Position numbers and translations under genes: made by a program. The notes under the pieces are model-generated. The model ran no database searches, had not been told where the DNA came from, and worked only from the letters and a program-made list of their open reading frames with translations. From IMG/VR virus record IMGVR_UViG_3300027734_000237, positions 1 to 29,642 of that record: a stretch of DNA of 29,642 bases. One strand, 5' to 3'. Numbering within the stretch: the first letter of the stretch is position 1; each line of letters opens with the position of its first letter. Shown one piece after another: positions 580 through 29,572 of the stretch. Source of the stretch: a virus (taxonomy: Duplodnaviria > Caudoviricetes).

Positions 580-644
580 GTTTAAACAAAAATGATGTTG
601 GCGCACTTAAAGTCGGAACACGTCCCACAGCGTCTAGCAGCTTC

Positions 645-785
645 ACCAACACAACTGAGCACTTTTTTCCTCGTCTTCCTACCATAGCGACCGCGTGTTC
701 TAAGGCTTCCCGGTTCTGAGTAAGTCCACCTTACGTTTCAGCGTCCAAGTGCTCATGTGTGTTAGTCCTAGGGATTCCACCTAGG
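645..785 (-). ncRNA. Candidate structured RNA
   Basis: Long-range stem 645-664/747-766, in which one mismatch becomes G-U on the minus strand, plus a CCTAGG hairpin at 767-785. Region is non-coding. Confidence 0.4.
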
Positions 786-1005
786 CCCACCTCGCTTTAA
801 CGTCTGCGTGTCCAAGACGATGTGAGTTTAAACGATAATGAGAACGTTCGCAAGTGTTTAAACGAAAATATATATAGGGTGGGGGTTTGGATTTGGATTG
901 GATAGGGGGGGGTGTTCTGTGGGAGATGTATGGATGAGTGGATTAGAGCGTAATAGACGGGCGGGTGGTCAACGGCCACAGCGGGGGGTACGGGTGCGGT
1001 GGGCA

Positions 1006-1671
1006 TCACGTCTGCGCCTGTTTAAACTGGGTGGCCTCCACATCGAGCACCGATGACCGTTCACCCTTGAGAAGCTTCAAGTGCCCTGCCAATTCGCGCT
1101 TCAATTGATCGGCCGTCACTGGTGCTTTGTCTTGCACGTCAACTGGTGTAAACAGCCCACATGCTTTGCCCATGAGTTCCAGTGCTTTTAGTTGACTGCC
1201 CTCTTGCTTGCCTGTCTTCACTAAGTGCAACAGACCCTTGAGCACAAACCTCTTGGATGCCACAACGTCATCTATCAGGTGTTCCACGGTTTCCCCCCAA
1301 GCCTCATTCAGTGCTTGGACAACCCTTGGATCTTTCATTAGCTTGTTGGCACTTGCGCTGATTGACGCATCTGATCCGGTGTCATTCTGGAAAGCCTCAC
1401 GGTAGGCCTGACGCAAGCTGTGGCCACGTATTACGCCTTGAACGAACCTTTGCTGTGACAACGTGAGGCCTTTGCCTCTTCTATGGTCTGACCCTACTAG
1501 TTGCCCATCTACTCTTCTCTTAGGTTTCCCTGCGGCATGGGCCAACCGTTCCGCTTCGCTTAGGCCTGCCATCTCCGCATCTGCCTGCTCCGAATCCCAA
1601 ACCGCCTCGGCCTCGGCCAACTCTTCCTTGTACATACCCGCACCAGTATTTCGCATAATCACCGCCTCCAT
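1006..1671 (-). CDS. terS: Terminase small subunit
   Basis: LTLSQQRFVQGVIRG...QAYREAF...ASANKLMKDPRV HTH and QLKALELMGKACGLF are typical TerS motifs. Upstream of terL. An alternative start at 1656 follows GGAGG. Confidence 0.8.
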   Translation of the reverse strand: MEAVIMRNTGAGMYKEELAEAEAVWDSEQADAEMAGLSEAERLAHAAGKPKRRVDGQLVGSDHRRGKGLTLSQQRFVQGVIRGHSLRQAYREAFQNDTGSDASISASANKLMKDPRVVQALNEAWGETVEHLIDDVVASKRFVLKGLLHLVKTGKQEGSQLKALELMGKACGLFTPVDVQDKAPVTADQLKRELAGHLKLLKGERSSVLDVEATQFKQAQT

Positions 1672-1745
1672 TTTGTGACTGACCAGTCTACTTTGTGCAC
1701 ACCAAGTGCAGGCCGTGAACTGTTCGTATTCCGCACCATTCTAAG

Positions 1746-1794
1746 TTATCCACAGGCTGTGGACAACCCATTTTTATCCCCAGCTTTATCCACA
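1746..1794. promoter_or_regulatory. Cluster of four DnaA boxes
   Basis: TTATCCACA at 1746 and 1786 (perfect), TGTGGACAA at 1758 (reverse, 1 mismatch), TTATCCCCA at 1774 (1 mismatch). Confidence 0.75.
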
Positions 1795-2098
1795 GAAAAT
1801 GTAGTACTTTTGTTTCCCAAAACGTATACCCCCGACAGTATTTTTCTCAATCGGCCGTTTAAGCCGTTTTTCCGAGGGTGCTAATGCACTGGTAGCCATG
1901 ACCCCTAAAAAACGCTTACAGGCCGTTTTAGATACCACCCAGAGTATGCCAACCATACACACCTGTATGTTGCCCAAAACCTCAGGCTTTCGCTTCTATT
2001 AGTAGCACCTTGTTTCCCTAGGAAACCCCTAGAAAACATGACCGTAAGAGATGCTGAGGTAATAACCCCACAACTTAGTCAACTTAATATTGTGGTGT

Positions 2099-2129
2099 TT
2101 GACAAACTAATATCTTTTTAGACTACAAT
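2099..2129 (+). promoter_or_regulatory. Putative sigma70 early promoter
   Basis: TTGACA-N19-TACAAT upstream of the first rightward gene, followed by a CACACC/GGTGTG hairpin. Spacer is longer than optimal. Confidence 0.5.
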
Positions 2130-2174
2130 CACTTCACACCACTTCCGGTGTGTTTAAACAGGACTTCAAGCACC

Positions 2175-2369
2175 ATGCAAAAACTCTTAAATGCATACAA
2201 GGTCAGCCCCTCACAGGACAACCTCAAACGCCTTATTGCCTACAGCCGTAAGCACCCCTTTGCTTCCATCATGTTGAATGCAGATGATGCCAAGCTGTTG
2301 ATGACCCTCGAACATGAGGTAGAGGCCTTGCTCAAGCAAGCCCGCCAACTGGCCATGGATTCAATCTGA
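2175..2369 (+). CDS. Hypothetical early protein
   Basis: ATG at 2175 after CAGGAC. First gene of the rightward block. Confidence 0.7.
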   Translation: MQKLLNAYKVSPSQDNLKRLIAYSRKHPFASIMLNADDAKLLMTLEHEVEALLKQARQLAMDSI

Positions 2370-2424
2370 CATATCAGCGGTAAGCCCGATGGGCTTATCA
2401 GTGCTATGTCGCACTACTTGGAGA
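2366..2424 (+). repeat. Structured intergenic repeat, copy 1
   Basis: CTGACATATCAGCGGTAAGCCCGATGGGCTTATCAGTGCTATGTCGCACTACTTGGAGA; aligns with 3093-3152. Confidence 0.85.
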
Positions 2425-2432
2425 ACCAAACC

Positions 2433-2765
2433 ATGACTGTCAATATTGATCGCTTCCAACCAACAGCCACTGCCCTGACTGCCACTGCTGTTGTGGCCAA
2501 CCTCAAAGCCCGCCTCAAGATGGCACAGCGGGATTACCTGTCATTCCCCAACGCCACACGTTGGAACGTCCAAACACGTGACGCATTTGTCTATCAGCAA
2601 GCGTTCTACTTTTTTAATGCTGTCAGCCGTTCCTATGAGGACAAAAACGCCTGTCTCATTGCACTGGGTGCTGAGTCCAATGGCAACTGGGGTGACGTGA
2701 TCTGCCAACATGCGTTTGGCCTGACCCTGACAGCCGCTTTGCGTGAACACGCCAACTGCCCTTAA
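2433..2765 (+). CDS. Hypothetical early protein
   Basis: GGAGA RBS then ATG at 2433. Confidence 0.75.
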   Translation: MTVNIDRFQPTATALTATAVVANLKARLKMAQRDYLSFPNATRWNVQTRDAFVYQQAFYFFNAVSRSYEDKNACLIALGAESNGNWGDVICQHAFGLTLTAALREHANCP

Positions 2766-2790
2766 TTCAATCAACTTCGGAGAATCAACC

Positions 2791-3096
2791 ATGGTCACAG
2801 AGCAAGTCAGAGACTATACGCACCTGTCAAAGGATCACAAGGGCGTGTTTGGTCAGATGGTCTACAACTACAGGTCACCCACGCATTGGGGCAGTGATGG
2901 CCTGTGCGAGATTCGGGTCAGCTTTTGGGGTGACCTCAAAGAGGCTGAGGTGCAATTCAGCTACTCATCGGGCGGTTGGAACAAAGGGTTCACCAACTTG
3001 CAGATTGCCGAGGCAATGAAAGAGGCCTTTGCCCTTGCGGAGCACCGCTTGGCCGTGCTTGAAAAGTGCCCTTGGCAAGCTCAGGTTGTCGCCTGA
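2791..3096 (+). CDS. Hypothetical early protein
   Basis: GGAGA RBS then ATG at 2791. Confidence 0.75.
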   Translation: MVTEQVRDYTHLSKDHKGVFGQMVYNYRSPTHWGSDGLCEIRVSFWGDLKEAEVQFSYSSGGWNKGFTNLQIAEAMKEAFALAEHRLAVLEKCPWQAQVVA

Positions 3097-3152
3097 CATT
3101 ACAGCGGTAAGCCCTGCGGGGTTTACCAGTGGAATGTCCCACTGATTGGAGA
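3093..3152 (+). repeat. Structured intergenic repeat, copy 2
   Basis: CTGACATTACAGCGGTAAGCCCTGCGGGGTTTACCAGTGGAATGTCCCACTGATTGGAGA; shows compensatory changes relative to copy 1. Confidence 0.85.
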
Positions 3153-3160
3153 TCTTAAAA

Positions 3161-3769
3161 ATGAACCAACTACATGCTAACCGTGAGGACTGGTTGAATG
3201 CCGCTGTCGATGAACTCCGGCCGTTCTTCTCTTCCAATGGCCACACCCTGCCCGCTGAGATTCGGGTTGCCTGTGCCTATCCAACCAATGCCAAACGCTC
3301 CGGCTTCAAGGTGCTTGGCCAGTGCATCCCAAACACCAACAGTGCTGACGGCCACTTTGAGATCTTTGTCTCACCGCAGATTGACAACCCTTACAAGGTC
3401 ACTGAGGTTTTGATTGCCCAACTGGCTTGCACTGCCAAGGGTGCGTTGAATCAGGCCAACCAAGCTTACGCCAAGGTTGCCGAGGCCATGCACATCTTGC
3501 CCGATGGCAACAAGTCCAACCCCTACTATGAAACCAACCATGGTGCGGCCTTTGACCTTGCCTATGCGGCCATCATTCAATCACTGGGTGACTACCCTCA
3601 CGCCAAGGTTGACGTGACCACACATAAGACCCAAGGCACACGCCTGTTGTTGGCCGTGTGCCCAACGTGCGGTTGCAAAATCCGCATGACCGCCAAGTGG
3701 ACGTTGAATGCACACGGTGACGTGGATCTGCCCACGTGCCGCTGTGGTGACCTGTTTAACCTTGTTTGA
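3161..3769 (+). CDS. SprT-like phage protein with C-terminal zinc ribbon; HExxH motif degenerate
   Basis: REDWLNAAVDELRPFF...SADGHFEIFVSP...LGDYPHAKVD...CPTCG...CRCG resembles phage SprT-like proteins. The expected HExxH position reads AQLAC. Confidence 0.65.
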   Translation: MNQLHANREDWLNAAVDELRPFFSSNGHTLPAEIRVACAYPTNAKRSGFKVLGQCIPNTNSADGHFEIFVSPQIDNPYKVTEVLIAQLACTAKGALNQANQAYAKVAEAMHILPDGNKSNPYYETNHGAAFDLAYAAIIQSLGDYPHAKVDVTTHKTQGTRLLLAVCPTCGCKIRMTAKWTLNAHGDVDLPTCRCGDLFNLV

Positions 3770-3795
3770 TGACCGTACCTAAGAGAGAGAAAACC

Positions 3796-5214
3796 ATGCA
3801 AAAAGCCCTTAAAGACACCCTGCTGTCGATCCCCAACAACGTCATCATTGGTGCAACCATTGCCCATGGTGCACCCAGTCATTTTGTAAGCAAGCTTCAA
3901 CGCATTGATTGGCTTGGCGAACAAATTGAATTAGGCCGCCTGACCATTGACCAAGTGTCCAGTGCCAAGCCTGTTGTGGCCTCACAGCCCACAGCCATTG
4001 ACACAGCCAAGCTTGATGCCCTTGAGTCAGTGGCCAACCGTGCCCACGCCTACGCCTTGCAGGGTCTAGACCTAAGCCGCTCAGTCGAAACCGCAGTGAC
4101 CACAATTGCGGGCGACATGGCCTCAACCCGCATGGCCATTGACCAACTGGCCAAGGCTCAGGCCGCCTCTGTGGTTGACACCTCCAAGGTTGATGCCGAG
4201 GTTGCCAGTGCTATTGCCAAGGCCTTTGCACCGTTTAAACAGGCCGTGATTGATGCCAATGCCCAAGAGGCTGTGGCCTCCGGTGTGGCCGCCACTGTGG
4301 TTGACCGCAAAACCGCTCTTGATGTTTTTGGGGTCAACGTGATTGACAACAAGGGCAATCAAGTTTGGGTTGACGTTTGGAACGCCTCCGATGCACCCGC
4401 CATTGACCCCAACTTTGTGTGGTCAGAGGGCATTTTGCGTCACTTGTTGTTGTCTCAATACACCAGTGAAAACCTGTGGTTTGGCGGTGAAAAGGGCACA
4501 GGCAAGTCAGAGACAGCCCGACAGTTTGCCGCCCGCACTGGCCGCTCATATACCCGCATCAACTTTCACAAATACAGCACCGCTGAGGACTACTGCGGAT
4601 CGATTGGCCTTGAGAATGGTGCGACAGTGTTTAAACGTGGTGCTTTCCTGACCGCCTTTGCCTCACCCTCTACCGTGATTTTGTTGGATGAGATCTCCAA
4701 CTGTGCGGCCGGAGAACTTGCCCCACTCAATGGTTTTCTCGAACCCAACAGCGCAGTGAACTATGGCGGCCAAGTGCACCGCAGGGCACGTGGTGTGATG
4801 GTGTGTGCCGCTGACAATACGCTGACCAACGGTGATCAGTCCGGCCGATACGCTGACACACGTCAAATGAATTCATCACTGGCTGACCGCTTCGCACGTG
4901 TCATCAAGTTTGAATACCTCAGCGCAGATGATGAGGCTGAGGCTCTGATCCGGCACACCGGATGCCATCAAGCACTGGCCACGCATGTTGTGGCGGCCAT
5001 CAATGCGGCACGTGCAAAGGTTGAAACAGGGGACGTGATTGATGCCCCCTCTATCCGCTCCGCCATTGCATTCATTCGCAGTTTAAACATGCTCTCAGTG
5101 GATGAGGCTTGGCACTCAGCCGTGACCGCACGTCAACCCTCAGAATCTGCGGCCGCATTGGATGCCATCAAGGCCGCTTACATCAACCCCGCTGACGTAG
5201 CTCAGTGGATCTAA
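3796..5214 (+). CDS. MoxR/CbbQ/CobS-like AAA+ ATPase
   Basis: Walker A GEKGTGKS, Walker B ILLDEI, SLADRF arginine-finger region, Ala-rich helical N-terminal extension. Adjacent to a vWA gene. ATG 3796 follows AG-rich RBS. Confidence 0.9.
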   Translation: MQKALKDTLLSIPNNVIIGATIAHGAPSHFVSKLQRIDWLGEQIELGRLTIDQVSSAKPVVASQPTAIDTAKLDALESVANRAHAYALQGLDLSRSVETAVTTIAGDMASTRMAIDQLAKAQAASVVDTSKVDAEVASAIAKAFAPFKQAVIDANAQEAVASGVAATVVDRKTALDVFGVNVIDNKGNQVWVDVWNASDAPAIDPNFVWSEGILRHLLLSQYTSENLWFGGEKGTGKSETARQFAARTGRSYTRINFHKYSTAEDYCGSIGLENGATVFKRGAFLTAFASPSTVILLDEISNCAAGELAPLNGFLEPNSAVNYGGQVHRRARGVMVCAADNTLTNGDQSGRYADTRQMNSSLADRFARVIKFEYLSADDEAEALIRHTGCHQALATHVVAAINAARAKVETGDVIDAPSIRSAIAFIRSLNMLSVDEAWHSAVTARQPSESAAALDAIKAAYINPADVAQWI

Positions 5215-5225
5215 GGAATATCAAA

Positions 5226-6233
5226 ATGACAAAAGCAAAATACCGTGGATGGGAATTCAAATCTGCCCTCACTGCGGCCATTCACAAGATGGCCTCAGAT
5301 CTCAAGATCAAACGTGTTATGGTGACCTTTAAGGATGAGATCCCAACAGCGGCCATCAACCGCCATGGGCAGATCTACATCACCAACATTGCAGATGATG
5401 CCGTGCTGACCCGCTTTGACCTTGAGCGTTTCACTGGCTTTGCCCTGCATGAGTTACTGCACCGCAAGTTCACCAACTTTGATGCCATCGACAATTCAAA
5501 GGTGAGTTACCTTGTGCAATTGCACAATGGTTTGGAGGATGCCTACATTGAGAATCGTGCCGTGGCTGAGAAGCTGACAGGCAATGCCGAGGGCTTGCTC
5601 CGCACCCTGATTGACAACATGGCACGTGAGGGCTTGGCCGAGGTGTCAGATTGGGCTGACCCCCGCCAATATCCCTTTGCACTGGCCGTCTATGCACGTA
5701 AGCACAGCACCGTGCAGATCCCATTGGCCAAGGGCTTGAAGCCCATTTTCGATGAGGCTTGCAAGCGTTTAAACACATGCAACTCCACGCATGACACATG
5801 GGCACTGGCTGAGTGGGTGTTTGACCAACTCAAACAGATTGGCAAACCTCAACAGCCCACACAACCCGATCAGCCTCAGGATCAGCCAACCAACGGCCAA
5901 CCTTGTGATGATGGCAACCCCAGTGACCAAGAGGGCGGCAATACCCCTACAGAGGCCGGAGAGGGGGGCACAAGCCCCGATCAGGGACAGGGTGAGGGTG
6001 ATGCCCCAACTCAGGGAAAAAACGCCCCTGAGGCCGGAGAGGCTCAGTCCCCCATCAAGGGTGAGAAGCAAACCTCAAAGGGCAAAGTGCTTGTGATTGC
6101 CAAGCCCCGCTCAACTGAGCCTAAGGCTGACGTGCCCGACTCTGCCAAGCAGTGCGGATCAATCAGCAACTGGGTTGTGACAAAGGATGCCTACCACGTA
6201 GGTGATGTTAGACGTTGGTCAATTGACTTTTAA
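5226..6233 (+). CDS. CobT-N-like protein with HExxH motif and low-complexity acidic Gln/Pro/Gly linker
   Basis: ALHELLHRKFT and LHNGLEDAYIE motifs typical of N-terminal domains of CobT-like vWA partners. AAGGA RBS. Confidence 0.75.
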   Translation: MTKAKYRGWEFKSALTAAIHKMASDLKIKRVMVTFKDEIPTAAINRHGQIYITNIADDAVLTRFDLERFTGFALHELLHRKFTNFDAIDNSKVSYLVQLHNGLEDAYIENRAVAEKLTGNAEGLLRTLIDNMAREGLAEVSDWADPRQYPFALAVYARKHSTVQIPLAKGLKPIFDEACKRLNTCNSTHDTWALAEWVFDQLKQIGKPQQPTQPDQPQDQPTNGQPCDDGNPSDQEGGNTPTEAGEGGTSPDQGQGEGDAPTQGKNAPEAGEAQSPIKGEKQTSKGKVLVIAKPRSTEPKADVPDSAKQCGSISNWVVTKDAYHVGDVRRWSIDF

Positions 6234-6241
6234 GGACTGCC

Positions 6242-6901
6242 ATGATCCCCGCAAAATTACGTTATGAAATTCGCAAAATGTTTGAGAACTCAGGCACTGA
6301 GGAATTCGACACCAACCGCAAAACAGGTTCAATCAACGTCAACGCATTGGCAGGGTATGGCCACACTGACCGCCTGTTTAAACGTAGGACTGAGGTAGCA
6401 GGAATTGACTCAGCAGTGACTATTGTTTTGGACTGCTCCGGCTCGATGGGTGATGAGCCTGAGCGCATGGCAAACGCTGTGCCTGTGGCCTACGCTTTGT
6501 TGGACACATTGGCTCAGGCCGGAGTGCCAACCTCACTGGTGACATTCAGCAGTAACGTTTCAGTGCTCAAGCCGTGGTCAATGCCCGCCAAAAAGGTCAA
6601 AGGCATGTTGGAGCGTTTAAACACATCTGGTAGCACCAATGACTATGCGGCCGTGCAGTTTGCCCATGGCATGTTGCTCCGCAGATCTGAGGCACGTAGG
6701 GTTTGCTTTGTCCTCACTGACGGTGAGGGTGAGCCGGACGCAACACGTGCCCAGTGCGAGTCAGGCACACGCCTTGGCATCACAACCATTGGCATTGGCA
6801 TTCTGCAATTTGTGCAACATGTCTACCCCAATGCAGTGCGTGTCAACAACGTGGCTGACATGGGCACTGTGGCATTCACCAAGCTTAAGCTTGCCGCCTG
6901 A
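6242..6901 (+). CDS. von Willebrand factor A domain protein (CobT C-terminal-like)
   Basis: MIDAS motif VLDCSGSM, GSTND, VLTDGE. Own RBS AAGGA at 6232. Confidence 0.88.
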   Translation: MIPAKLRYEIRKMFENSGTEEFDTNRKTGSINVNALAGYGHTDRLFKRRTEVAGIDSAVTIVLDCSGSMGDEPERMANAVPVAYALLDTLAQAGVPTSLVTFSSNVSVLKPWSMPAKKVKGMLERLNTSGSTNDYAAVQFAHGMLLRRSEARRVCFVLTDGEGEPDATRAQCESGTRLGITTIGIGILQFVQHVYPNAVRVNNVADMGTVAFTKLKLAA

Positions 6902-6943
6902 GGGGGGCTACCCCTTGATGACCGTAACTACAGGAGAGAACAA

Positions 6944-7129
6944 ATGAACACAATCAAAATGACCTTGAGCCTTGAAATTGCCGGAGGTGAGAACTGGCAG
7001 GAGCGTTTGGCCGATGCCTTGTTGGCCATTCAATCAACCGTGCGTGAGAGTGAAACACTGCGAGTGGCTGACACGCTAGATGGCAATGACTTTGCCGCTT
7101 ACTACACCTTGTTTGGAGAACTGAAATGA
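6944..7129 (+). CDS. Hypothetical protein
   Basis: CAGGAGAG RBS, 61 aa, coupled to the next gene. Confidence 0.7.
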   Translation: MNTIKMTLSLEIAGGENWQERLADALLAIQSTVRESETLRVADTLDGNDFAAYYTLFGELK

Positions 7130-7296
7130 AAAAGTACAAAGTTTGGGTGAAAGAAATTGCCTATCACTACGCCTTTATTGAGGCCGAGGATGAGGACACG
7201 GCCTTTGACATTGCCTTGAATATGGATGGGTCAGAGTTTATCGCTGGAAATCAAATAGATTGGGACATCTACAGCGTAGAGGAGGCCGCCCAATGA
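7126..7296 (+). CDS. Small acidic hypothetical protein (56 aa; not in ORF track)
   Basis: MKKYKVWVKEIAYHYAFIEAEDEDTAFDIA...WDIYSVEEAAQ. GGAGA RBS, ATGA overlaps at both ends. Confidence 0.75.
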   Translation: MKKYKVWVKEIAYHYAFIEAEDEDTAFDIALNMDGSEFIAGNQIDWDIYSVEEAAQ

Positions 7297-7502
7297 ACGA
7301 AAGAGAACAGATTGTTTACCTTAGGACGGCTCTTAAGAACCTTGCCGAGTCAGCAGATCGATATATCGATGACGGCTCTTGGATCGAGCATGTGCATCTT
7401 GATGTGCAGTTTGCAAAGGATGTTTTGAGGAACACACGTTTAAACAAGGTAGAGCAGGGCATCAGGGATGCAGTAGGCAGATCAATGAAGGGAGAGAAAT
7501 AA
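7293..7502 (+). CDS. Hypothetical protein
   Basis: GGAGG RBS, ATG 7293. Confidence 0.7.
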   Translation: MNEREQIVYLRTALKNLAESADRYIDDGSWIEHVHLDVQFAKDVLRNTRLNKVEQGIRDAVGRSMKGEK

Positions 7503-7732
7503 TGGCACACATGGTTGAAACACATGATGGTTGGGTGTTACGTGATGACTGGGACATTTACGATGTACAGGCAAGGCTTGAGGATTACTGGGGCTTTGAG
7601 TTAACCGATGCCGAGTGCACCAAGGTTTTAAAGCTTGTGGCTAAGGCCTTTGATGCCAACATTGGGATTAACTGGGACGCTATCGATGCGGCCATTGAAA
7701 CCCTGTACGGTAAGCGGAGGGTTGACAAATGA
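7502..7732 (+). CDS. Hypothetical protein
   Basis: GGAGAG RBS, TAATG coupling. Confidence 0.75.
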   Translation: MAHMVETHDGWVLRDDWDIYDVQARLEDYWGFELTDAECTKVLKLVAKAFDANIGINWDAIDAAIETLYGKRRVDK

Positions 7733-7821: not shown

Positions 7822-7822
7822 G

Positions 7823-8554: not shown

Positions 8555-8587
8555 CTTACCAGCAGCGGCTGCTGGCTGCGTTTAAAC

Positions 8588-11200: not shown

Positions 11201-11221
11201 GCTTCTCTCCTTTGTTGAAAA

Positions 11222-21500: not shown

Positions 21501-24500
21501 AAGAAGTCAGCAATATCCATGTTGACCAGTTTGTTTTTAGATTTGTATCCCTGCTCAGAAGCTTTCTCTATCTCAGCGGGGTCAAATCTATCTGTTGCAT
21601 CACGCAAGCTATAGCGGATGTCAGGATTAGACTTGTCAAAGGTTCCTATGTTGCCTGTAGCAGACTTAATCTGCGATGGGTCATAGACTGCAAGATTTCT
21701 AGTGCCGCCTTCGTTTACATAAAAACCATCGTGCCCCAGTTTTTTAATGGCATCTTGGACAACTTGGCTCTCAATGGTTTCCCACTCACCACGTTTAATC
21801 TGATACAAGATGTCGGGGTCATCTGAAAAATTGTAAGACTTTTGCATTTGTCTATATAGATCTGCGACTTGAGCAGAATCTTTGTAGTCAAATGGATCTT
21901 GTGCACTTACATACACAGGCATTACGTTAGGGCCAGTTGGTAATCTATCGTGCACCGCCTTGATGACGTAGTCTGCTACCGCACTGGGAATAGAACTCCA
22001 AGCAAATCCGTAATTTGGATCAATCCGAGACTTAAGTAACTGGGCTGTAGATGCGCCAATATCTTTGGCTTTTCTAGCAACTTTGATGGCATCCAACACC
22101 ATCTTGTTTTGCTCGTCAATGTCTAGAGTATTCCAGTACTCACGGCTAATATAGTTCATGCCTGCGTCAGAGAAACCTTCGGCAAAGCTAGGGTTGTCCG
22201 TTACAAAAATTGCATTAGCTTGCTTGGGTTTAAACGTAGTAATGTCACGCGCAGTTCCGTGGTACATAACTTTTGGCGTGTCGTCTGAGTTAACGACCAC
22301 ACTGTTGCCAAACCATTGTTTAAACTCAGGCGTATCCGGCGCAGCACGCAGGCTTAGTCGTTCGTCTTCTTCAAGCTGCCCACCAGTTGCATCAGGGCTT
22401 TGGCTCTTTCCTTGGGGTCTAATCCCACCGTCAGATCCTTCACTGAAGACCACAGAGGGTCGCGCTCGTCCATCACCCTCACGGGCTTGGGCGATGATTG
22501 CTTCTTCGTATCCGATGTCATCTGCTTTCCTTCCGCTTAATTTTTCGTATAAACGTTTCTCGTAGTACCACAAAGCCGCTTGGATGTCGGCCAGTGTTAA
22601 ATCAATACCTTCGTCACGCAACATCTGTTGTGCCTTACGGCCTGCGTCGTACATGAACTTACGATCTGTTGCTGTAAACGGAGCCTCTTCCAGCATTTCA
22701 AATTCGTTCTTGTAGATGGTGTTAGCCATTTTTTCCATGTTGTGTTCAAACAACAGTTGGTCGTAAGCTTCAGCCGCTACCTTTTCGGCTTTCTTAAACC
22801 ATGCGGCTTTCTCAGCTTTCTTGGCGGGTTCTTTTGCACCAACCAGATGCTCAAGCTCACTGTTCCAACCGTACTCTTCGTACTTGTTACGCAACGGAAT
22901 GGTGGCGGCAACCACTTCATCACGGCTTGCGCCCGGTTGCTCCATCATGTCACGGAATTTCTCAATAGAAGCCTCCGTGGCCTTAGGCATCAACAGACCA
23001 CGCATGCGGTTGATGGAGCGAGTCCACCACAAGTCCATGGTCAGGTAACCTTCTGAGCCTGACAGGTTGGCGTAGAACGCACCAAGCTTAGGGCCAAAGT
23101 ACACAGCGGCCGCAGGCACAACTGTATTGGCTAAATAGCTACCGTCAGATTCTTCGCCACGCTCACGCAGTCGGGCATTCATTTCCTTGACTGTGATTTC
23201 TTGAAGCAAGACCTTCTCAAAGTCATCACCGTGTGTGTCAAGCAACTCTTGAATCATGACAAGGTTGTTCTCTAGAGCCGTAGCCCTGCGGTTACCCATG
23301 GCAACTAAGGGTTTACCCATACGCAAATCAGCATACAGCTTGATGGCGTTATCAATGTTCTTTGTTACTTTCTCACCGTTGGATGTCACTGCCACCAAGG
23401 CAGAGAACACTGAACGGGCGTGCTTGTTCTTTTCAAGCTCAGGGAAACGCTCGGCCAGTCGGCTAACGGCATTAGGATAGTTGTTGGAGTACCAGCCAAG
23501 GCCTGTACCAGTCTTGGCAGTTGTGCCCAGTTGGTATGCCACCTCATCAGCAATAGCCTGTGCAATCTGCGTTGATTGTTGAGGCGTAAGGTTGTTGCGA
23601 TCCATTGCGCCAAACTGATCCAGTGTGTACTGATTCAAAGCCTTGGCGATGTCCCGGACGTTATTAAATCTATTTCGTACAGCCTCGGTGTTTAAACCCA
23701 ACTCCTGCTGGGCTGTGCCGGTCTTGCGTTCCATAATGCCACGGGTCGAGAAAGGAACTCCCTCTCCAGACAATGACTTCCTCTCGCCACCTTCGGTAGC
23801 TGTACCAGCTTTCAGTTCGCCACGTTCAATCTGACCAAAGACATCCTCGTATGTGCGGAAACCTGCTCCTGCCAATGCATTACGCAGCGCAGTAAAGAAG
23901 TCATTTAAACGCTTCATCAGCGCTGCCAGCATTCCTGCTGGGGGTTTATTGTTGGCAAAGTCAGCAAACGCATCAGCGATTGCTTCCTCAATGACCTTGT
24001 CTATGTCGCCTTTGTATTCTTTTACATAAGCGTCATAGCGGGACATGGTCTGCCCGTTATAGGATGCATTACGGCTCTTAAGGTACTTATCAATCCACTG
24101 ATCCTTGGCCATGCGCTCAAGCGCAGTCCATTGCTGAGGTGTAAAGAAACCCAGTTCCTTTAGGGCGTGGATAGACTCATGACGCAGAATCTTGGCAGGA
24201 TTAGACAAGTCCAAGGCAATCTGGATAAGCTTCTTGCTGTACGAACCTTCAGACTTAAGATTCTCAATAATGTTTAAACCTACGTCGCCCAAGCCAAACT
24301 GCTTCAGCATAGGTTTGAGCAAAGCTTCAAACTGAGCGATCCGCTCTTTGGCTCCGGGAGTCTGCTTGGCTTCTTCTGCCTTAGCCTTCTCAGCCTCAAT
24401 GCCTTCTAAGACTTCAGAAACCTTCTTACCCTCAGTCTGTGGAGCGGCAGTTCTGCGTTTGATCTCAGCTTCAGCCTTCTTACCAATGGCACGACGGCCT

Positions 24501-27025
24501 TGCTGTTGAGTTAACTCTTGCAGTTGCTTCTCGTCCATGTCGGCCAAGATGCCTTCTTCAGCCGCCTGACGGGTGGGGTAGGTAGCCCTAGCCTGACCCT
24601 GATCAAACACTGTGTAGCCCTTACGGCCAACGGCTTTAGTGCCTGTAGGCTTGACCTCTAGCGGTGTAGCCTTAGGATCGTACTTGGCGATCTCTTCAGT
24701 CAGGGTTGCAATTTTTGCTTGAGTCTCTTCGACCAACTTGGCATGGCGACCGGCAGCTTTCTCGTACTGGGTCGTCTGGCCTTTGCCCTGAGCCTCTAAT
24801 GTGTTTAAACGCTTCTGGCTGGCTTCAATGGCGTTGTTCAACTGCGTGATTTGGTTCTCACGAGCGTTAGCCATACCGGCACGAGTACGCTCAAAGCTTG
24901 CCTTCTTGGCGTTGGCTTCTTCGACTGTGTTGGCTTTAAACAGGACTTCTTCCCCGGCGGAAACTTCGTAACCTGCTGGAGCCTCACCCTCTTTAAACGA
25001 GCCTTCCCGGATGTCAAATCCTTCGGGCAACGTGGCGGAGGTGGACGGAGCGGCAATCGCATCCGTTGTAATCTGTCTTACGTTTAAACCACGCTTCTTT
25101 GCTGCCGCGTCAGCAGCGGTTTTAGATGCGTAGGTAGACGGCAAAGCCTTGCCGGTCTTGGGATCAAAGACTTCATAGCGGGCAGACTTAATAAGGTCTA
25201 CATCACCATTCTTAATCGCTGCATCAAGGATAGCGCCAGCATGTGAGTCTTCAGTAAGGTTTGTATATTCCTTAATGGTGTCGATCACTTGCTTGGTATC
25301 AGCAGGCGCACCTAAATCATTGAGGAACATGTCCACACCCTTGAGGGCACGAGCATATTGTTTGTCGTCAAACCGTCGGGCGTTTGTGCCTTCGGGTAGG
25401 ATGTTTAAATCTGTAGCTTCTGGCAGGTTAGCCAGTGCTTTAAACGCAGCGTGCAACTGCGGCTGGGACATCTTCTCTAGTGCGTTTACACCAGTTGTCC
25501 GGGCCAAGAAATCGTTGAAGCCCTGAGTCTTAGTCTCAACCTTCTTACGCTTGGCTTGGTTCAGAATGTCTTCTGCGGTGTATTTCTCACCGGCATAGCC
25601 AGACTTGGCGGTAATGAGTTCGTCCAGCAAAGCCTGCTCGGCCTTAGGGTTAACCCCCGGCATAGCATCCACAAAGTCCTCAATCGAGTACTCCTTGAGC
25701 TTGGGAAGGCCAGCCTCCTTGCGGTAGTCATCGATCTGCTTGTAGATGTCAAAGGGAACTTCGTTCTTACGGATGTTGCCTAGAGGGTTCTTGAGCGGGT
25801 CAATTTGTACTTCTTCAGCGGGGATTTCCTCAGCCGGTGCAGGAAGAGCAATAGCTTGCTGTTGCTCCATCTGTTGACGGATACCTTCTGTTTGTTTTTC
25901 CAAAACAGCACGTTCTGCCACTGCCTTGTCATTAGCAGCTTTAAGTTCTTGGTCAAATTGAGCTTGCTTCTTTGCTTGGTCATCGGCTTTAGCTTGTTGA
26001 TGCGAACGTTGCAGATTAGACATCTGCGCGGGAGAGACAGCAAGACCTAGGACTGCACCGACCAAAGCATCATGGGCAACTGTACCGGCCAAACCTTCTG
26101 TCAAATCTGTAGCCACGCCAGCTTGATTCAAAGCGACGTTAGTGCCCACTTGACCCACACCGGCCTGCACAGCTTCAGGCGCAGCTTCGCCCAGCACAGA
26201 TGTGCCGACAGCTTGTTTAAACGTTGGAGCATCCAGCGATGCCACGCCGTTAGCTTTGCTGACCTTCTTAGCCGCATTAGCCAAAGCCTGTTCAACACCG
26301 AATGCGCCTTCCAGTGCACCAGCCGCACCAGCGGCAAGTTGTCGTGGAGCGTTCTGCAATGAGTACGCAGCAGCCTCTTGGGCCTTCTGCTCGGCAATCA
26401 TTGGGTCTACGCCTTGGGCTAACAAGGCCTGTTTAACCGCCTCGTAGTCTTGTCCCTTTTGACCGCCAACGCCCATCAAGCCACCAATACCTGTGGCTCC
26501 ACGTGCGCCTGCTAATGCCCTAGCGCCAAGGCTTGCGCCTGCGGCTACCTGACCACCGGGCAATAAGCCACCGGCAATAATAGGAACGCTAGAAGCCAGT
26601 GCCTGCAAACCTGTCTGTAATGGAGCCTCTAAGAAACCACCCACACCAGTGGAAATCTCTTTACCTAAGTCACCTTTGGCGCGATCTTGAAGCTCTTGCC
26701 GACGGGCAATTTCTTCTTTACGGGCGGGGGACAGTGCCTCAAACGCAGATTGCTGTACGCCACCTAAATATTGAGAGGCTGCATTATCTGTACCAAACAG
26801 GTTAGTAAGAGATTGAATACCTCCCACTAAACCCTGTCCAGTAGCAAGGCCAACGTCCTTTAAAGTACTGGGTGCGCTTTTGGCAGACTCCAGTTCTTTT
26901 GTGGTCTGCCCTGCGTATGGGTAATTCTGTAATACCAGACCATACACCTGATCGTCAGTCGCACCTTCCGGGGCGTTTACACGATACTTATTCCCATCCG
27001 GAGCGGTGTACTGATAAATTGCCAT
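18557..27025 (-). CDS. Large polyvalent internal virion (ejection) protein, 2822 aa
   Basis: Ala/Gly-rich N-terminus, zincin motif HESIH, ART-like YHGT..IFVT..GHDG module, ParB/Srx-like HEGRHR module, LPD38-like C-terminus (NFNRKG..IPFLNARMQG..KIPIPFEIG). Confidence 0.85.
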   Translation of the reverse strand: MAIYQYTAPDGNKYRVNAPEGATDDQVYGLVLQNYPYAGQTTKELESAKSAPSTLKDVGLATGQGLVGGIQSLTNLFGTDNAASQYLGGVQQSAFEALSPARKEEIARRQELQDRAKGDLGKEISTGVGGFLEAPLQTGLQALASSVPIIAGGLLPGGQVAAGASLGARALAGARGATGIGGLMGVGGQKGQDYEAVKQALLAQGVDPMIAEQKAQEAAAYSLQNAPRQLAAGAAGALEGAFGVEQALANAAKKVSKANGVASLDAPTFKQAVGTSVLGEAAPEAVQAGVGQVGTNVALNQAGVATDLTEGLAGTVAHDALVGAVLGLAVSPAQMSNLQRSHQQAKADDQAKKQAQFDQELKAANDKAVAERAVLEKQTEGIRQQMEQQQAIALPAPAEEIPAEEVQIDPLKNPLGNIRKNEVPFDIYKQIDDYRKEAGLPKLKEYSIEDFVDAMPGVNPKAEQALLDELITAKSGYAGEKYTAEDILNQAKRKKVETKTQGFNDFLARTTGVNALEKMSQPQLHAAFKALANLPEATDLNILPEGTNARRFDDKQYARALKGVDMFLNDLGAPADTKQVIDTIKEYTNLTEDSHAGAILDAAIKNGDVDLIKSARYEVFDPKTGKALPSTYASKTAADAAAKKRGLNVRQITTDAIAAPSTSATLPEGFDIREGSFKEGEAPAGYEVSAGEEVLFKANTVEEANAKKASFERTRAGMANARENQITQLNNAIEASQKRLNTLEAQGKGQTTQYEKAAGRHAKLVEETQAKIATLTEEIAKYDPKATPLEVKPTGTKAVGRKGYTVFDQGQARATYPTRQAAEEGILADMDEKQLQELTQQQGRRAIGKKAEAEIKRRTAAPQTEGKKVSEVLEGIEAEKAKAEEAKQTPGAKERIAQFEALLKPMLKQFGLGDVGLNIIENLKSEGSYSKKLIQIALDLSNPAKILRHESIHALKELGFFTPQQWTALERMAKDQWIDKYLKSRNASYNGQTMSRYDAYVKEYKGDIDKVIEEAIADAFADFANNKPPAGMLAALMKRLNDFFTALRNALAGAGFRTYEDVFGQIERGELKAGTATEGGERKSLSGEGVPFSTRGIMERKTGTAQQELGLNTEAVRNRFNNVRDIAKALNQYTLDQFGAMDRNNLTPQQSTQIAQAIADEVAYQLGTTAKTGTGLGWYSNNYPNAVSRLAERFPELEKNKHARSVFSALVAVTSNGEKVTKNIDNAIKLYADLRMGKPLVAMGNRRATALENNLVMIQELLDTHGDDFEKVLLQEITVKEMNARLRERGEESDGSYLANTVVPAAAVYFGPKLGAFYANLSGSEGYLTMDLWWTRSINRMRGLLMPKATEASIEKFRDMMEQPGASRDEVVAATIPLRNKYEEYGWNSELEHLVGAKEPAKKAEKAAWFKKAEKVAAEAYDQLLFEHNMEKMANTIYKNEFEMLEEAPFTATDRKFMYDAGRKAQQMLRDEGIDLTLADIQAALWYYEKRLYEKLSGRKADDIGYEEAIIAQAREGDGRARPSVVFSEGSDGGIRPQGKSQSPDATGGQLEEDERLSLRAAPDTPEFKQWFGNSVVVNSDDTPKVMYHGTARDITTFKPKQANAIFVTDNPSFAEGFSDAGMNYISREYWNTLDIDEQNKMVLDAIKVARKAKDIGASTAQLLKSRIDPNYGFAWSSIPSAVADYVIKAVHDRLPTGPNVMPVYVSAQDPFDYKDSAQVADLYRQMQKSYNFSDDPDILYQIKRGEWETIESQVVQDAIKKLGHDGFYVNEGGTRNLAVYDPSQIKSATGNIGTFDKSNPDIRYSLRDATDRFDPAEIEKASEQGYKSKNKLVNMDIADFLKLAKFGFNKEKEILAQKREQEGLKFTSIPYLYMSKDGNNLRVTGHEGRHRARALQAAGYTTMPVEWRTEIRWSEQTDPEKFDYSESWPERIVAEEGALREYASIPMPFTREEGAQDYAGPQKQERLSLRDSTDPAIRGRVDETTTSREETGFVERITKALGGESFSKLRAQALNRYQRLADYDKELAKTMGGAAFMADASAESAALMSDLAAGVTASAMGVHDRNGGIPVYKNGFTTVFNDDGKIKGPVAIFAPLAKYNDPFVYQLYQFWAGAQRGSRLLADGKEELFTQADLDLAKKLCDPANPAASQYPEFKEIQEDWNTFNNGLVQFLVDTGVLSEAQKEAFTKHSDYIPFYRQMDGDSTIGPNIFQSISGVKAPKKIKGGEAPLADFLETIVRNTQSSIQMGMKNVAAQRAVDVAVKINQAERMPKAGAGLDVVQVLENGNMVSYRVHDPLFIDAVKSLNMPDLPFIGLLSGPANLLRNLVTKDPGFMMANMVRDSMAAYVTSGIKMTPVIDTIKNFKSAMAGTSPEFQALLNAGLLGGYEFSQNVEVSAQAFENELKKKAGGKSTLERLANPMTAPKSLWELLEKGTTASDAATRIEVYKRTLAETGNEAEALFRALEVMNFNRKGSSPVVRILTAAIPFLNARMQGLDVLYRASFGKLGHKDAAAIQRSFFVRGMTMAALSAMYWALTHDDDEYKKQEQETKDNNWLVPSLGVKIPIPFEIGVIFKVIPERTMAYFFGDDTGKDFMKSMARQLSSTLAVNPIPQAALPLVEATTNYSFFTQRAIVGQGMEGIAPEYQVGPNTSAIAAQIGSALGISPMKLDHIIGGYTGTMGMYMVSALDSIMNMNSDTPNASKRFEQMPLIKRFALDPEARGTVTSYYELKNAADQAVRTSNLLERTMNFEEKGEFMRDNIKLLASKEFILDMEKTMKEFRQMQVMIRSSRMDADAKRDALLRINQAQNALTANINTLKANVS

Positions 27026-27028
27026 TTT

Positions 27029-28642
27029 TTATCCAAGTCGTTCAACTGTACCTTTGATGGGCATAGTGGGTGTAGTTTGCCCCGATGGCCCAGCACCGAA
27101 TCTAGCACGAATTCGGTTGTAAGCGTCTTCATTTTCTTTCAACATTTTTTGTCTTTCCTCAGGTGTCTTAGCCATGTAAGGAATAGTCTTTGGATCATGT
27201 GGACGCTCTTCTTGATATGCCTTTTCAATATTGCCTTTCATACGCGCATCTGCGGTTTCATACTGAGCACCACTGATCAGGCTAGGAGCACGCTCCAACG
27301 ATTCCTTGACGGACATGCCTTGACCTTGCAAGTATTTGGCAATCTGAATAACTTGAGGATCACGGTTGGCACTGGCCGCACTAATGTTATGGCCACGAGC
27401 TTGTTCAGCCAACTTAGCCATATCCAGTTTGTTAGAAAACTCAGTTTGTTGAAGATCACGACCAATTTTCTCAGCGTCTTGTTTGTGTTTAAACGCAGCT
27501 TCAAAATCACCACGCGCCTCAGCACGACGGGCAGCGTCAAGTTCAGCACGCATTTTAGCCATGCCCATTTCTTGATCACGACGCATTTTGGCTTGTGCAT
27601 CTGCACGATCAAACGCAGCCGCTTCAGAAGCGCCAGCCGACTTACCAAAGCCACCTAGCAAAGCACCAATGCCTTTTTGGCCACGAGTGGCTTCGCCTGC
27701 ATCAATCAATGATTTCCAGAAGTCAGCACGTGTACGGCCTTTTTCTTGGGTAATGAAACGAGCGCGGTCAGCTTCGTCTTGTTGGGCAATCTTGTCCAGT
27801 AACTTTTGAAACTCGCTGCCAGCCAATCCGGGGTTAGCTGCTTTAAACGCAGCCAATTTCTTGTCGTAAGCATCTGCATCTGGCCGCTCAAACGTAGGAG
27901 CCTTAGGCATACCGATGGCCGCAGGGATTCCGCTACCACCGGCTGGTGCAGGGGCTGGAGGAGCTTGCATAAAGTCGCTTCTGCGAGTGGCTGTAGCGGG
28001 ATCGTATGCAATTCCTTGTTGTTCTCTTGGGGCCTCTGGTTTAGGAGGATTTTTTAAGGCGGCTGCTTCGCGTTCGCCACGCTCAAGAGCGCGACGGTTT
28101 TCTGGATTAAAAATACCCAGTTTTTCCATCAGCGTGCGATCATCGTTAGAAGGTTCATCTGAACTAATTACCGCTCCCGTCATGGGATCACGCACTACAT
28201 TGCCTTCAGCAAACGCTACTACGCCACCACCAGAGGCAAATTTAAACATGTCGTTGGTTGGTAGGGAGGTCAAACCACCCGCAGCCATCTGCGGCATCTC
28301 TGGCATCTCTTCCTCTGGCTGTGGGGGTTGAGGTGTACCTTCAGGCACTGGCTGGGGTTGACCCATCAGGCTCTGTTGAAGCTGTTCATTAGACTGCGCT
28401 TGTTTAGCCGCACCGGCTTGCATCAAGTCAGCGGCCTGTCCGGTGATCTCTTTCTCAAGCTTGTCTTTAACTGTGCCATCAGGAGGTGTTCCTGTACGTG
28501 CAGACTGCTCCATTTGCTTGCGACGATTCAACTCGCCCAAAGCTAAATAGGGAGGAACCTGAGGGTTCTTCCCGTTAGCGTATTCCATGATTGCCCTCAT
28601 AGGCATATCCTTGAGGTGCTCTTGTACTTGGATCAGATTCAT
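27029..28642 (-). CDS. Putative internal virion protein
   Basis: 537 aa, helical and Ala/Gln-rich, with MAAGG and FASGGGVVAFAEG motifs. Directly upstream of the giant gene. Confidence 0.7.
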   Translation of the reverse strand: MNLIQVQEHLKDMPMRAIMEYANGKNPQVPPYLALGELNRRKQMEQSARTGTPPDGTVKDKLEKEITGQAADLMQAGAAKQAQSNEQLQQSLMGQPQPVPEGTPQPPQPEEEMPEMPQMAAGGLTSLPTNDMFKFASGGGVVAFAEGNVVRDPMTGAVISSDEPSNDDRTLMEKLGIFNPENRRALERGEREAAALKNPPKPEAPREQQGIAYDPATATRRSDFMQAPPAPAPAGGSGIPAAIGMPKAPTFERPDADAYDKKLAAFKAANPGLAGSEFQKLLDKIAQQDEADRARFITQEKGRTRADFWKSLIDAGEATRGQKGIGALLGGFGKSAGASEAAAFDRADAQAKMRRDQEMGMAKMRAELDAARRAEARGDFEAAFKHKQDAEKIGRDLQQTEFSNKLDMAKLAEQARGHNISAASANRDPQVIQIAKYLQGQGMSVKESLERAPSLISGAQYETADARMKGNIEKAYQEERPHDPKTIPYMAKTPEERQKMLKENEDAYNRIRARFGAGPSGQTTPTMPIKGTVERLG

Positions 28643-28651
28643 AGCGAACCC

Positions 28652-29563
28652 TTAGGTCAATTTAAACTTGTTCAATGAGTCCATGATAGAACCCATACCG
28701 CCGATTGAAGACACCAAAGAGCCAAGGCCAGATTGCTGGGCGGCTGTGTTGGTGACCGTAGAGATAGGCAGACCTTGAAGCATAGACTGCAAGTACTGCG
28801 TCTTCTTCATTGGATCATCACGTTGTGCGAGGAATTCGTTGTAGTCTGCGCTGATACCTTGCTGTTCAATACCACGCTGTTGACCACCGGCCTCAGACAT
28901 CATGTCAGCCAAAGTCTTAGCTTGACCCTGCTCAGTGTTAAATTGACCCATGGCCTTGTCGTACGCATTTGCGTACCCTTGGCCGATAGTCTTGTTCTGC
29001 TCTTGAAGTAGGTTGCGGTTAGCCTCAGACTCCATAATGGCCTGACGGCCGCCACCATAACCACCGGCTTGGGTTAACTTGGCCATGCTTGGTTGGAGAT
29101 TGATCTCGGACTGACGGCGCATTTCTGCCAACTGAGGTTGGAGGACTGAATCCAAGTATGGATTCATGTACTGAGCCGCTACGCCAGTAGGTTGACCGGA
29201 AGGAGGCTGACCTCCCATAGGTGCACCCATACCGCCCATAGGAGGAGCGCCTGCGCCTGTGCCAACGGCTCCGGGGCTATAAACACCGGGGGTCATTGGA
29301 GGAGGCTGATACGCACCTGTAGAGCTAAATGATTGACCAAGTTGGCCGGGGAAGGACAGATTGCCCAAGCCTTGGAAGACCTTGGACTGTAAGCCTGACT
29401 CACCCGCAGTCTGTGGGCCACCGTACACAGCATAAGGCTGATCGGCAATCGCTTGGGCTTTGCCAAGCATATCCGTTACATACGGGCCTGCCCATTCAGA
29501 TAGGGTGGAGGAGGATGTTCCTCCAGATTGGGGGGTTAGTCCTGCAATAGGTGATGTAGCCAT
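28652..29563 (-). CDS. Putative internal virion/pilot protein
   Basis: Gly/Gln-rich. YMNPYL...GGYGGGRQAIMESE pattern seen in podophage ejection proteins. Confidence 0.7.
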   Translation of the reverse strand: MATSPIAGLTPQSGGTSSSTLSEWAGPYVTDMLGKAQAIADQPYAVYGGPQTAGESGLQSKVFQGLGNLSFPGQLGQSFSSTGAYQPPPMTPGVYSPGAVGTGAGAPPMGGMGAPMGGQPPSGQPTGVAAQYMNPYLDSVLQPQLAEMRRQSEINLQPSMAKLTQAGGYGGGRQAIMESEANRNLLQEQNKTIGQGYANAYDKAMGQFNTEQGQAKTLADMMSEAGGQQRGIEQQGISADYNEFLAQRDDPMKKTQYLQSMLQGLPISTVTNTAAQQSGLGSLVSSIGGMGSIMDSLNKFKLT

Positions 29564-29572
29564 GTTTAAACC

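Follow-up and report, generated by a model that had tools for sequence, protein, structure and literature searches.

HIP1 of cyanobacteria is an octameric palindrome that occurs about once per kb, inside genes and in several frames; it is chromosome-wide and is linked to methyltransferases. SPRTN binds DNA structures and not a word. The operators and stoperators of Cluster A mycobacteriophages, which carry an L5 gp71-type repressor, are described in PMC6550527 as 20-30 or more dispersed sites for one phage protein, with a few in promoters and the majority elsewhere; these stoperators are 13-bp asymmetric sequences that are oriented with transcription, are read by a helix-turn-helix (HTH) repressor and diverge between subclusters. 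The antirestriction protein ArdC (PMC7213743) is a mobile-element protein that combines a DNA-binding part with a metalloprotease-like domain. Here we analyzed a 29,642-nucleotide stretch of the IMG/VR virus record IMGVR_UViG_3300027734_000237 (the window), in which the palindrome GTTTAAAC is repeated 40 times and which encodes a SprT-like protein with a C-terminal zinc ribbon. The word array is real and under selection, and this ribbon is its likely reader.

Like Cluster A stoperators, the sites are dispersed (40, with 9 intergenic) and enriched at promoters (23/67 promoter matches), and the site sequence co-varies with a protein. Unlike the 13-bp asymmetric stoperators, the word is an 8-bp palindrome or near-palindrome whose flanks show only a weak pyrimidine (Y) at -1; it is unoriented whereas stoperators follow transcription, the protein that co-varies with it combines a zincin with a zinc ribbon and is not an HTH reader, and the word is nearly constant across phyla in a family whose three complete relatives have no tyrosine integrase. 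The array works like an operator/stoperator array but fails its defining features of site length, orientation and HTH reader. The SprT-like protein resembles the SprT/Spartan and Wss1 metalloproteases in its zincin N-domain fold and in a small C-terminal domain predicted to bind DNA, but the window copy has AQLAC in place of HExxH. Its likeness to ArdC, by description only, is that both are proteins of mobile elements that combine DNA binding with a metalloprotease-like domain; ArdC binds single-stranded DNA without a known word. HIP1 shares the iterated octameric palindrome, the density of about 1 per kb and the placement inside genes in several frames; unlike HIP1, the word stays within mobile elements in the genomes compared, is spread unevenly over the phage genome and follows a phage protein.

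GTTTAAAC is the top 8-mer of the window, where the word and its variants are laid out as follows.
580..29571, no strand: 40 exact copies of GTTTAAAC, 1.35 per kb
523..28667, no strand: 27 one-letter variants keeping one intact GTTTA half, from sequence counts
1020..27494, no strand: 31 intragenic sites, read x-F-K or x-L-N in the frame analysis
580..587, minus strand: site directly before the ATG of a gene for a LexA-like DNA-binding domain (LexA-DBD-like gene)
29564..29571, minus strand: site directly before the ATG of an ejection-protein-like gene (28652-29563)
826..863, no strand: intergenic site pair between the terminase small subunit gene and the LexA-like gene
8580..8587, no strand: intergenic site at the convergence point of the early operon and the replication operon
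12404..12486, no strand: cluster of three intergenic sites downstream of a RusA-like gene

The expected count of GTTTAAAC in the window is 0.46 at order 0, 0.52 at order 2 and 2.1 under an order 3 Markov model; orders 4-6 raise it to 12.8-38.6 because GTTTAAAC itself inflates its own sub-words. The sequence-only reading, made from the letters of the window, had listed 40 starts with about 0.45 copies expected, and its list was exact for 40/40 with none missed; the six variant positions and six F-K or L-N frames that it named were also correct, and the Markov enrichment it had proposed as a check stands at orders 0-3. Its description of the palindrome as spanning the whole phage was overstated, as the window is the dense half and the head and tail arm is sparse in a complete 64.5 kb relative. 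Y is mildly preferred at the base preceding GTTTAAAC (58/80 half-sites). Counted on both strands, the variants comprise 11 GTGTAAAC/GTTTACAC, 8 ATTTAAAC/GTTTAAAT and 8 CTTTAAAC/GTTTAAAG against about 0.8-1.2 expected each, while changes at the two central bases (TA) number 5 versus 4.8 expected, which is chance. One-letter variants are thus in excess only where one GTTTA half remains whole, and the 27 are likely to be weaker sites of the same array. With gene starts chosen by hand, 31 exact sites are intragenic (32 gene-site pairs) and 9 intergenic. The spacing of GTTTAAAC in the window is not significantly even (coefficient of variation 0.84, P 0.15). Contigs from a run of a different study (X3) are identical across the sites at 2152, 4233, 5767, 6376, 6615, 7438, 7825, 8881 and 8941, and because these contigs reproduce nine sites without difference an assembly artefact was excluded as their source. 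Against the usual depletion of palindromes in phages, GTTTAAAC is 77-fold enriched in the same window in which CGCG is depleted (21 versus 68 expected). The observed/expected ratio of CGCG spans 0.0-1.0 among the window and its relatives (L001-L079), which suggests differing host restriction systems.

Selection acts on the DNA of these sites. The 32 intragenic gene-site pairs (16 F-K and 16 L-N) compare with a mean of 4.0 and a maximum of 10 in 500 synonymous-codon shuffles, and together with the Markov counts these shuffles ruled out lower-order composition and codon or dipeptide bias as the cause. Where the amino acid is unchanged in homologues at 80-95% identity, TTA codons of the motif are kept in 38/38 cases versus 69/177 elsewhere, and AAA codons in 22/22 versus 354/568; these homologues are related, hence the events are not independent. 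Of 72 distinct primase homologues, 54 retain the site at residue 297, and GTTTAAAT in the primase gene is kept in 65/72 and 50/72 at two places. Other intragenic sites have been gained or lost, and the gains are often accompanied by a change to K or N where most homologues carry another residue. The sequence-only reading had proposed selection on the DNA through a phage-specific site system, with codon shuffles and conservation at synonymous positions as checks; the shuffles, the retention of motif codons above background and the host counts given below all support it.

The window is a 29.6 kb fragment of a tailed phage; the sequencing runs that contain its DNA are freshwater metagenomes, with no RNA data set listed among them, and it has no close isolate (primase identity <33%). 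GTTTAAAC is present in 73/79 IMG/VR relatives at 0.24-2.2 per kb and absent in 6, among which L065 carries 20 ATTTAAAC and L072-L075 carry 8-14 GTGTAAAC. Other spellings occur in L049 (GTAAAC, 13 observed/2.9 expected), L484 (10 GCGTTTAC) and L023 (10 GTTTACAT). Three complete relatives (63-64.5 kb) contain 46, 49 and 49 copies of GTTTAAAC, which are concentrated in the part of the genome that holds the terminase region and the early, replication and ejection genes and are sparse in the head and tail genes; the 64.5 kb relative has 22 copies at 20-40 kb and 5 in head and tail genes at 40-60 kb.

Across phages, the word is paired with the SprT-like gene. The SprT-like protein is the only window protein common (E<1e-5) to phages Emotion, Caron, 4A, Mica and R5C, and its gene is the sole open reading frame (ORF) common to all six named motif-rich phages compared; motif-rich phages sharing the gene come from isolation on Arthrobacter, Microbacterium, Burkholderia and Dinoroseobacter. 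All 9/9 named phages with a Q-[GST]-T-R tail are enriched in the word, ep3 weakly. Observed/expected counts of GTGTAAAC are 17/0.12 in Arthrobacter phage Emotion, 17/0.03 in Microbacterium phage Caron, 13/0.22 in phage 4A and 35/0.05 in Streptomyces phage Marky; those of GTTTAAAC are 34/1.7 in Methylophilales phage Venkman, 7/0.09 in Burkholderia phage Mica, 10/0.02 in Dinoroseobacter phage R5C (50 of 78 kb) and 16/0.02 in Pan1, and Escherichia coli phage ep3 has 4/0.93. In the 3/3 homologues with divergent tails the word is absent or at chance (FP1, 0 and 1 in 50 of 60 kb; Psa21-HRN, 0; Kieran, 0). The same holds for 9/9 phages without a full-length homologue: PJN03 has 3 versus 2.6 expected, and eight have none, namely BaileyBlu, Halsey, Teagster, Ssp-JY39 (which has a LexA-like homologue), MinM2 (a primase homologue), Albright, Stoor and Kenzers. 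No replacement word of comparable type was found among the top 7-, 8- and 10-mers of the EB-cluster phages Kieran, Albright and Stoor or of the YuA-like Psa21-HRN. The Caron and R5C proteins served to retrieve 62 IMG/VR loci with remote homologues; 54 of these loci are enriched (Poisson P<0.001) and 8 are not, and a site lies at most 200 bases upstream of the SprT-like gene in 41/62. A scan that started from the motif found the gene in 10/12 strongly enriched loci versus 0/64 other loci >2 kb; its positives all belong to the window's own family and add no independent lineage, and 44 loci, with only about 600 bases each, gave too little sequence for a judgement.

The word was also examined in bacterial genomes. 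In three actinobacterial genomes with the gene, 22/28, 14/23 and 11/21 GTKTAAAC sites lie within a 40-45 kb stretch around it, and these SprT-bearing stretches are presumed to be prophages; outside them the chromosomes have 6, 9 and 10 sites in 8.9, 3.7 and 8.1 Mb. In one betaproteobacterial and one alphaproteobacterial metagenome-assembled genome (MAG) the word is below reversed-word controls. The comparison with bacterial genomes that the sequence-only reading had called for showed no enrichment outside the SprT stretch in 5/5 genomes, among which the actual host of the window phage is not included. GTDB loci with the gene are enriched in 16/30 cases. The Methylocella-type loci are mobilisable-type elements with two sites each, one upstream of the gene and one inside it; these loci (L511-L522, e.g. 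L515:9881-10723) contain MobC-like and coupling-protein-like ORFs, read by eye, with several gene copies per genome. In the genomes compared, the word is confined to elements carrying the SprT-like gene and does not behave as a host trait.

The candidate reader has the following parts.
3146..3769, plus strand: SprT-like gene, 207 aa when translated from a TTG (the ATG at 3161 is the start in the Atlas record), with a zincin-fold N-domain and a C-terminal zinc ribbon
3416..3430, plus strand: degenerate metal-binding motif A-Q-L-A-C, H-E-L-x-H in relatives by alignment
3623..3766, plus strand: C-terminal zinc ribbon (CxxC ... CxC) with conserved Q163, T165, R166, C172, R180, W185 and C198, the predicted DNA-binding head
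3632..3643, plus strand: opening stretch of the zinc ribbon, Q163-G164-T165-R166; in relatives the outer base of the word varies together with residues 164 and 166

The gene matches PHROG 6361 (E 1.6e-23), and 164 INPHARED phage records contain a homologue, for which SprT-like protease is the usual name; the family comprises 3,723 protein clusters at 50% identity. The Pfam SprT-like model (PF10263) is matched by 48/61 family members at E<=0.1 (best 3.4e-8) but not by the window copy. The structure model (pLDDT 95) shows a zincin-like N-domain and a small strand-rich C-domain, and the best fold matches of the N-domain have middling scores: SPRTN (Z 7.3, rmsd 3.1, 95 aligned residues), abylysin (7.2) and Wss1 (7.1). 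A sequence search of the PDB with the family profile gave chance Rubisco matches only. For the ribbon, a fold search with residues 163-207 gave matches at Z 3.6 only, and an ESM Atlas search with residues 150-207 gave scores of at most 0.83 that serve as leads only, one cluster carrying Zn_ribbon_SprT in 15% of its members. In the EB-cluster Microbacterium phages Albright (L376:271-456), Stoor (L377:431-595) and Kenzers (L378:324-482) only the C-terminal ribbon is found where Kieran has the full SprT-like gene, and in this cluster the ribbon stands as a module of its own. HExxH is intact in most family members and has been lost in at least two clades on the tree; the window copy is predicted from its AQLAC motif to be protease-dead. 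Array density is alike in protease-dead clades (27-32 per 21.7 kb) and intact ones (28). As HExxH is lost and site density unchanged, the array in the window's lineage probably serves binding and not proteolysis.

The spelling of the word follows residues of the ribbon. We sorted 169 distinct C-terminal sequences by local word, and the first clue came from three loci with Q-P-T-R, not Q-[GST]-T-R, which favour ATTTAAAC. Every IMG/VR locus matching a back-translated QPTR ribbon was then taken, giving 24 loci, all SprT-like, with the three re-found; ATTTAAAC outnumbers GTTTAAAC in 23/24 and the remaining locus has neither. A maximum-likelihood tree of 84 rows requires six QP label changes, each of them imposed by supported branches. 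In the corresponding six QP groups, A makes up a share of the outer base of 0.37, 0.52, 0.63, 0.83, 0.38 and 0.50 (the last being one site), compared with 0.12, 0.12, 0.07, 0.07, 0.00 and 0.04 in hand-picked neighbour groups and 0.08 in the window; the QP groups exceed their sister groups in 6/6 contrasts, and ATTTACAC rises as well. The change from Gly164 to Pro shifts the outer base from G towards A.

Where Arg166 is lost, GTTTAAAC is gone and replaced by CTTTAAAG, CTGTAAAG or ATTTAAAK in two lineages. The QKTY locus L364 has CTGTAAAG at 10/0.03 observed/expected, the QKTS loci L554 and L561 have CTTTAAAG at 10/0.09 and 9/0.08, and the QKTN loci L555, L558 and L560 have ATTTAAAG and ATTTAAAT (5; 13+13; 3+4), while L556 (QKTY, 1.1 kb) has no array. 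Altogether the Arg-less QKT-[SYN] loci show 0 GTTTAAAC in 7/7 and a C- or A-edged array in 6/7. They count as two lineages because the protein of the L554 group is 48% identical to that of R5C and 34% to that of L364. Full-length QKTR proteins keep G (15 copies in L023, one each in L550 and L551); L553 proved not to be a homologue. Separate lineages thus show the word shifting along with individual residues of the same protein, and direct readout by that protein is the best explanation of the co-variation. Arg-G is a common mode of protein-DNA readout, and by analogy we infer that Arg166 touches the outer G.

On the basis of the gene pairing and this residue-to-base code, the SprT-like protein (3146-3769) is very probably the reader of the word. 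It would bind the 40 words via its C-terminal zinc ribbon, recognizing one strict GTTTA half and one looser half, so that the palindrome serves both ways. The position of a site at the head of its own operon bears on what the bound protein might do.
2099..2159, plus strand: sigma70-like promoter TTGACA-19-TACAAT (2099-2129) followed by the site at 2152, an operator-like position at the head of the SprT operon

The promoter-to-site offset of 53 bases recurs in L430 and L433. Among sigma70-like matches in 80 family loci, 23/67 hold a word versus 8.7% of random windows, and family words often lie between the two boxes of the promoter of the SprT gene or of the early operon; likewise, sites are located within or beside the SprT promoter in Emotion, Caron, Marky, Pan1 and ep3. 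A promoter scan of positions 1-13500 gave 6 promoter sites versus 11.8 in shuffles, with a scanner limit of an 18-base spacer, so that the 19-spacer promoter was missed. In Venkman (L179) sites lie exactly at early-cassette gene junctions between 2154 and 4002 (2154, 2375, 2611, 3789, 4002). We propose that the protein, once bound, would act as a repressor at its own promoter and would lower transcription across the genome half with the early and replication genes, with intragenic sites possibly acting as road-blocks or a sink. Given the SprT-like protein as reader, repression or silencing is favoured, with some reserve, as the main effect in this phage, and for the whole reading, a selected array bound by the zinc ribbon that represses its own promoter and damps the early and replication half, we estimate a probability of roughly 0.55. 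According to 10.1101/2025.05.26.655371, Cluster AZ phages have no known immunity repressor, the SprT-like gene is listed among the candidates, and phage Liebe, with an N-terminally truncated homologue, forms clear plaques versus the turbid ones of Maureen. The Liebe phenotype counts in favour of the proposed repression.

Several observations weigh against this reading. As to the code, L069 reaches an A share of 0.40 despite its QGTR tail, no more than 1-4 sites underlie two of the six QP contrasts, the loci without Arg come from only two lineages, and no residue was seen that accounts for GTTTAAAC versus GTGTAAAC. As to the pairing, 8/62 remote loci and most Methylocella-type elements have a canonical tail yet 0-3 sites, stand-alone 49-aa QKTR ribbons (4 loci) have no array, and L234 and L225, picked by motif alone, are enriched with no SprT homologue within the fetched 6-10 kb. 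These two loci and L222, likewise motif-rich and with no SprT homologue in the fetched stretch, have no protein in common with the window. As to repression, 31/40 sites are intragenic, where it needs road-blocking, and asymmetric sites have no consistent orientation: GTTTACAC occurs 6 times sense and 5 times antisense in the window, and the strand ratios of asymmetric words are 15:2 in Emotion, 4:13 in Caron and 13:22 in Marky, GTTTAAAG at 7:1 in the window being the one biased class. The word is nearly constant across phyla, unlike immunity-repressor sites, which diverge (PMC6550527). No tyrosine integrase was found in 3/3 complete relatives, serine integrases not having been searched, and a lysogeny repressor therefore has no evident use in the window family. 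Finally, the Liebe phenotype implicates the N-domain, and Liebe carries three further changes (10.1101/2025.05.26.655371).

The alternative that survives best keeps the same reader and gives it another job: the array would park the SprT-like protein every few kb on the element's DNA, where the zincin cleaves or displaces host DNA-bound proteins such as silencers, translocating defence complexes or cross-linked proteins, and the promoter sites merely set the dose. For this phage we consider it possible but doubtful. It agrees with the intact HExxH in most of the family, the fold nearest to the DNA-protein crosslink proteases SPRTN and Wss1, the near invariance of the word across phyla, the presence of the gene in a mobilisable-type element and one database record that labels a homologue 'antirestriction protein' (annotation only). 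The sites are spaced more regularly than expected by chance in Marky (P 0.0006), Pan1 (0.003), R5C (0.006), Caron (0.026) and one integrated element (0.02). On the other side, HExxH is lost in the window lineage and at least one other clade with the sites retained, the sites are biased to one half and not even in the window family and Venkman, Z <8 does not establish function and no substrate is known. Family-wide this explanation keeps real weight because the sites are mostly intragenic and unoriented, the word is undiverged and evenly spaced in several phages, and the complete relatives have no tyrosine integrase. It is a minority view of the family of about 3,700 clusters, yet one to be taken seriously, that it may give phages and other mobile elements of several phyla a self-addressing system in which a 45-residue ribbon with a re-programmable code brings a zincin, a protease mostly and a dead scaffold here, to the word and clears or fends off host proteins, beyond promoter repression.

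The remaining explanations are far less probable. A LexA-DBD-like protein (349-579) as reader, shutting off early genes late in infection, draws on a Pfam LexA_DNA_bind match (E 5e-10), conservation in all family loci reaching that far and a site abutting its ATG, but none of seven named SprT phages, of which six are motif-rich, has a match to it, Synechococcus phage Ssp-JY39 encodes a 40% homologue yet contains 0 sites, and the recognition helix is KSKANVHR or KSKANMHR in both A-shifted and GTG-shifted lineages and so does not follow the word; we regard it as very improbable. Equally hard to sustain is a host-driven palindrome, produced by methylation and repair, a host DNA-binding protein or a Chi-like signal and acquired or adapted to by phages. 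Its HIP1-like features are a palindromic octamer lying inside genes in both open frames, and the chromosome counts come from bacteria other than a known host of this family; the chromosomes outside the SprT stretch and two MAGs lack the word's enrichment, however, gene-less phages of the same hosts have no word, and the spelling follows residues of a phage protein, by which the host-driven explanation is largely refuted. The methylation-repair HIP analogue offered by the sequence-only reading is likewise unsupported, given the absence of enrichment outside the SprT stretch in the bacterial genomes compared and of PF01555 in 3/3 complete relatives; this negative concerns PF01555 N6/N4 methyltransferases, other methyltransferase families and host enzymes not having been searched. 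A GTWWAC-type methylation motif, a type known from Burkholderiales, was rejected: the word is without it, and the window counts (observed/expected) are 17/14.1 for GTAAAC, 18/14.6 for GTTAAC and 2/5.2 for GTATAC. That the sites serve a virion protein for packaging, coating or ejection, densest on the first-ejected half, is scarcely credible: the structural arm has a lower site density than the part that contains the terminase region and the early and ejection genes, and many contigs end just upstream of the LexA-like gene, but the word occurs in siphoviruses, myoviruses and podovirus-like phages without a structural protein in common with the window and in a non-phage mobilisable element, and the contig ends may stem from a poly-G tract at 905-913. 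Of the sequence-only proposal of binding sites for a genome-coating, packaging or ejection protein, the phage-protein sites are supported by the gene pairing and the residue code, while the probable reader is an early, non-structural SprT-like protein. Its further candidates, decoy sites and a self mark, are conceivable.

The window further encodes terminase subunits, the LexA-DBD-like protein, CobS/CobT-like AAA and von Willebrand factor A (vWA) proteins, a primase-helicase, RusA, an exonuclease and Sak, as well as a 2822-aa polyvalent protein and ejection-like proteins. The LexA-like gene (349-579, minus strand) encodes a stand-alone LexA DNA-binding domain of 77 aa without a peptidase domain, lies between the terminase genes and is highly conserved in the family. 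Many related contigs (L098-L169; window 600-1000) start 50-400 bases upstream of it; either the genome may physically end there, or the contigs may break at the poly-G tract around 905-913. Two perfect and two imperfect DnaA boxes (TTATCCACA) lie at 1746-1794, upstream of the terminase small subunit gene; such clusters, of up to six boxes, are kept in most family loci and could be a host-DnaA-dependent origin or a sink. At 12404-12486 the three sites are interleaved with GCCGGG repeats near the cumulative GC-skew minimum, a possible origin region. The CobS-like AAA, CobT-like and vWA genes (3766-6901, plus strand) trail the SprT-like gene throughout the family, with CobT-vWA split or fused among relatives. 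The polyvalent protein (18557-27025, minus strand) has ART-PolyVal and LPD38 domains, and its N-terminal part differs in the 94% relative G001.

In the open-licence literature we found no description of the word or of its pairing with the gene, and the residue-to-base code linking residues 164 and 166 to the outer base is the new element of this analysis. If true, it would define a new class of sequence-specific DNA-binding domain, with contacts of residue 164 and Arg166 to the outer base pair, and a case of phages reshaping their own proteins to write a DNA word. According to PMC8758107 and 10.1101/2025.05.26.655371, actinophages of Clusters AZ and EH establish lysogens that are immune, although no repressor is known for them, and the latter gives no binding site for the Cluster AZ SprT-like protein. 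The SprT-like gene of these clusters carries GTGTAAAC in its own promoter, which offers a concrete candidate for a repressor and its operator in phages that can be cultured. If instead the protein is addressed to the word as a protease, the array would represent a novel means by which mobile DNA marks and protects itself.

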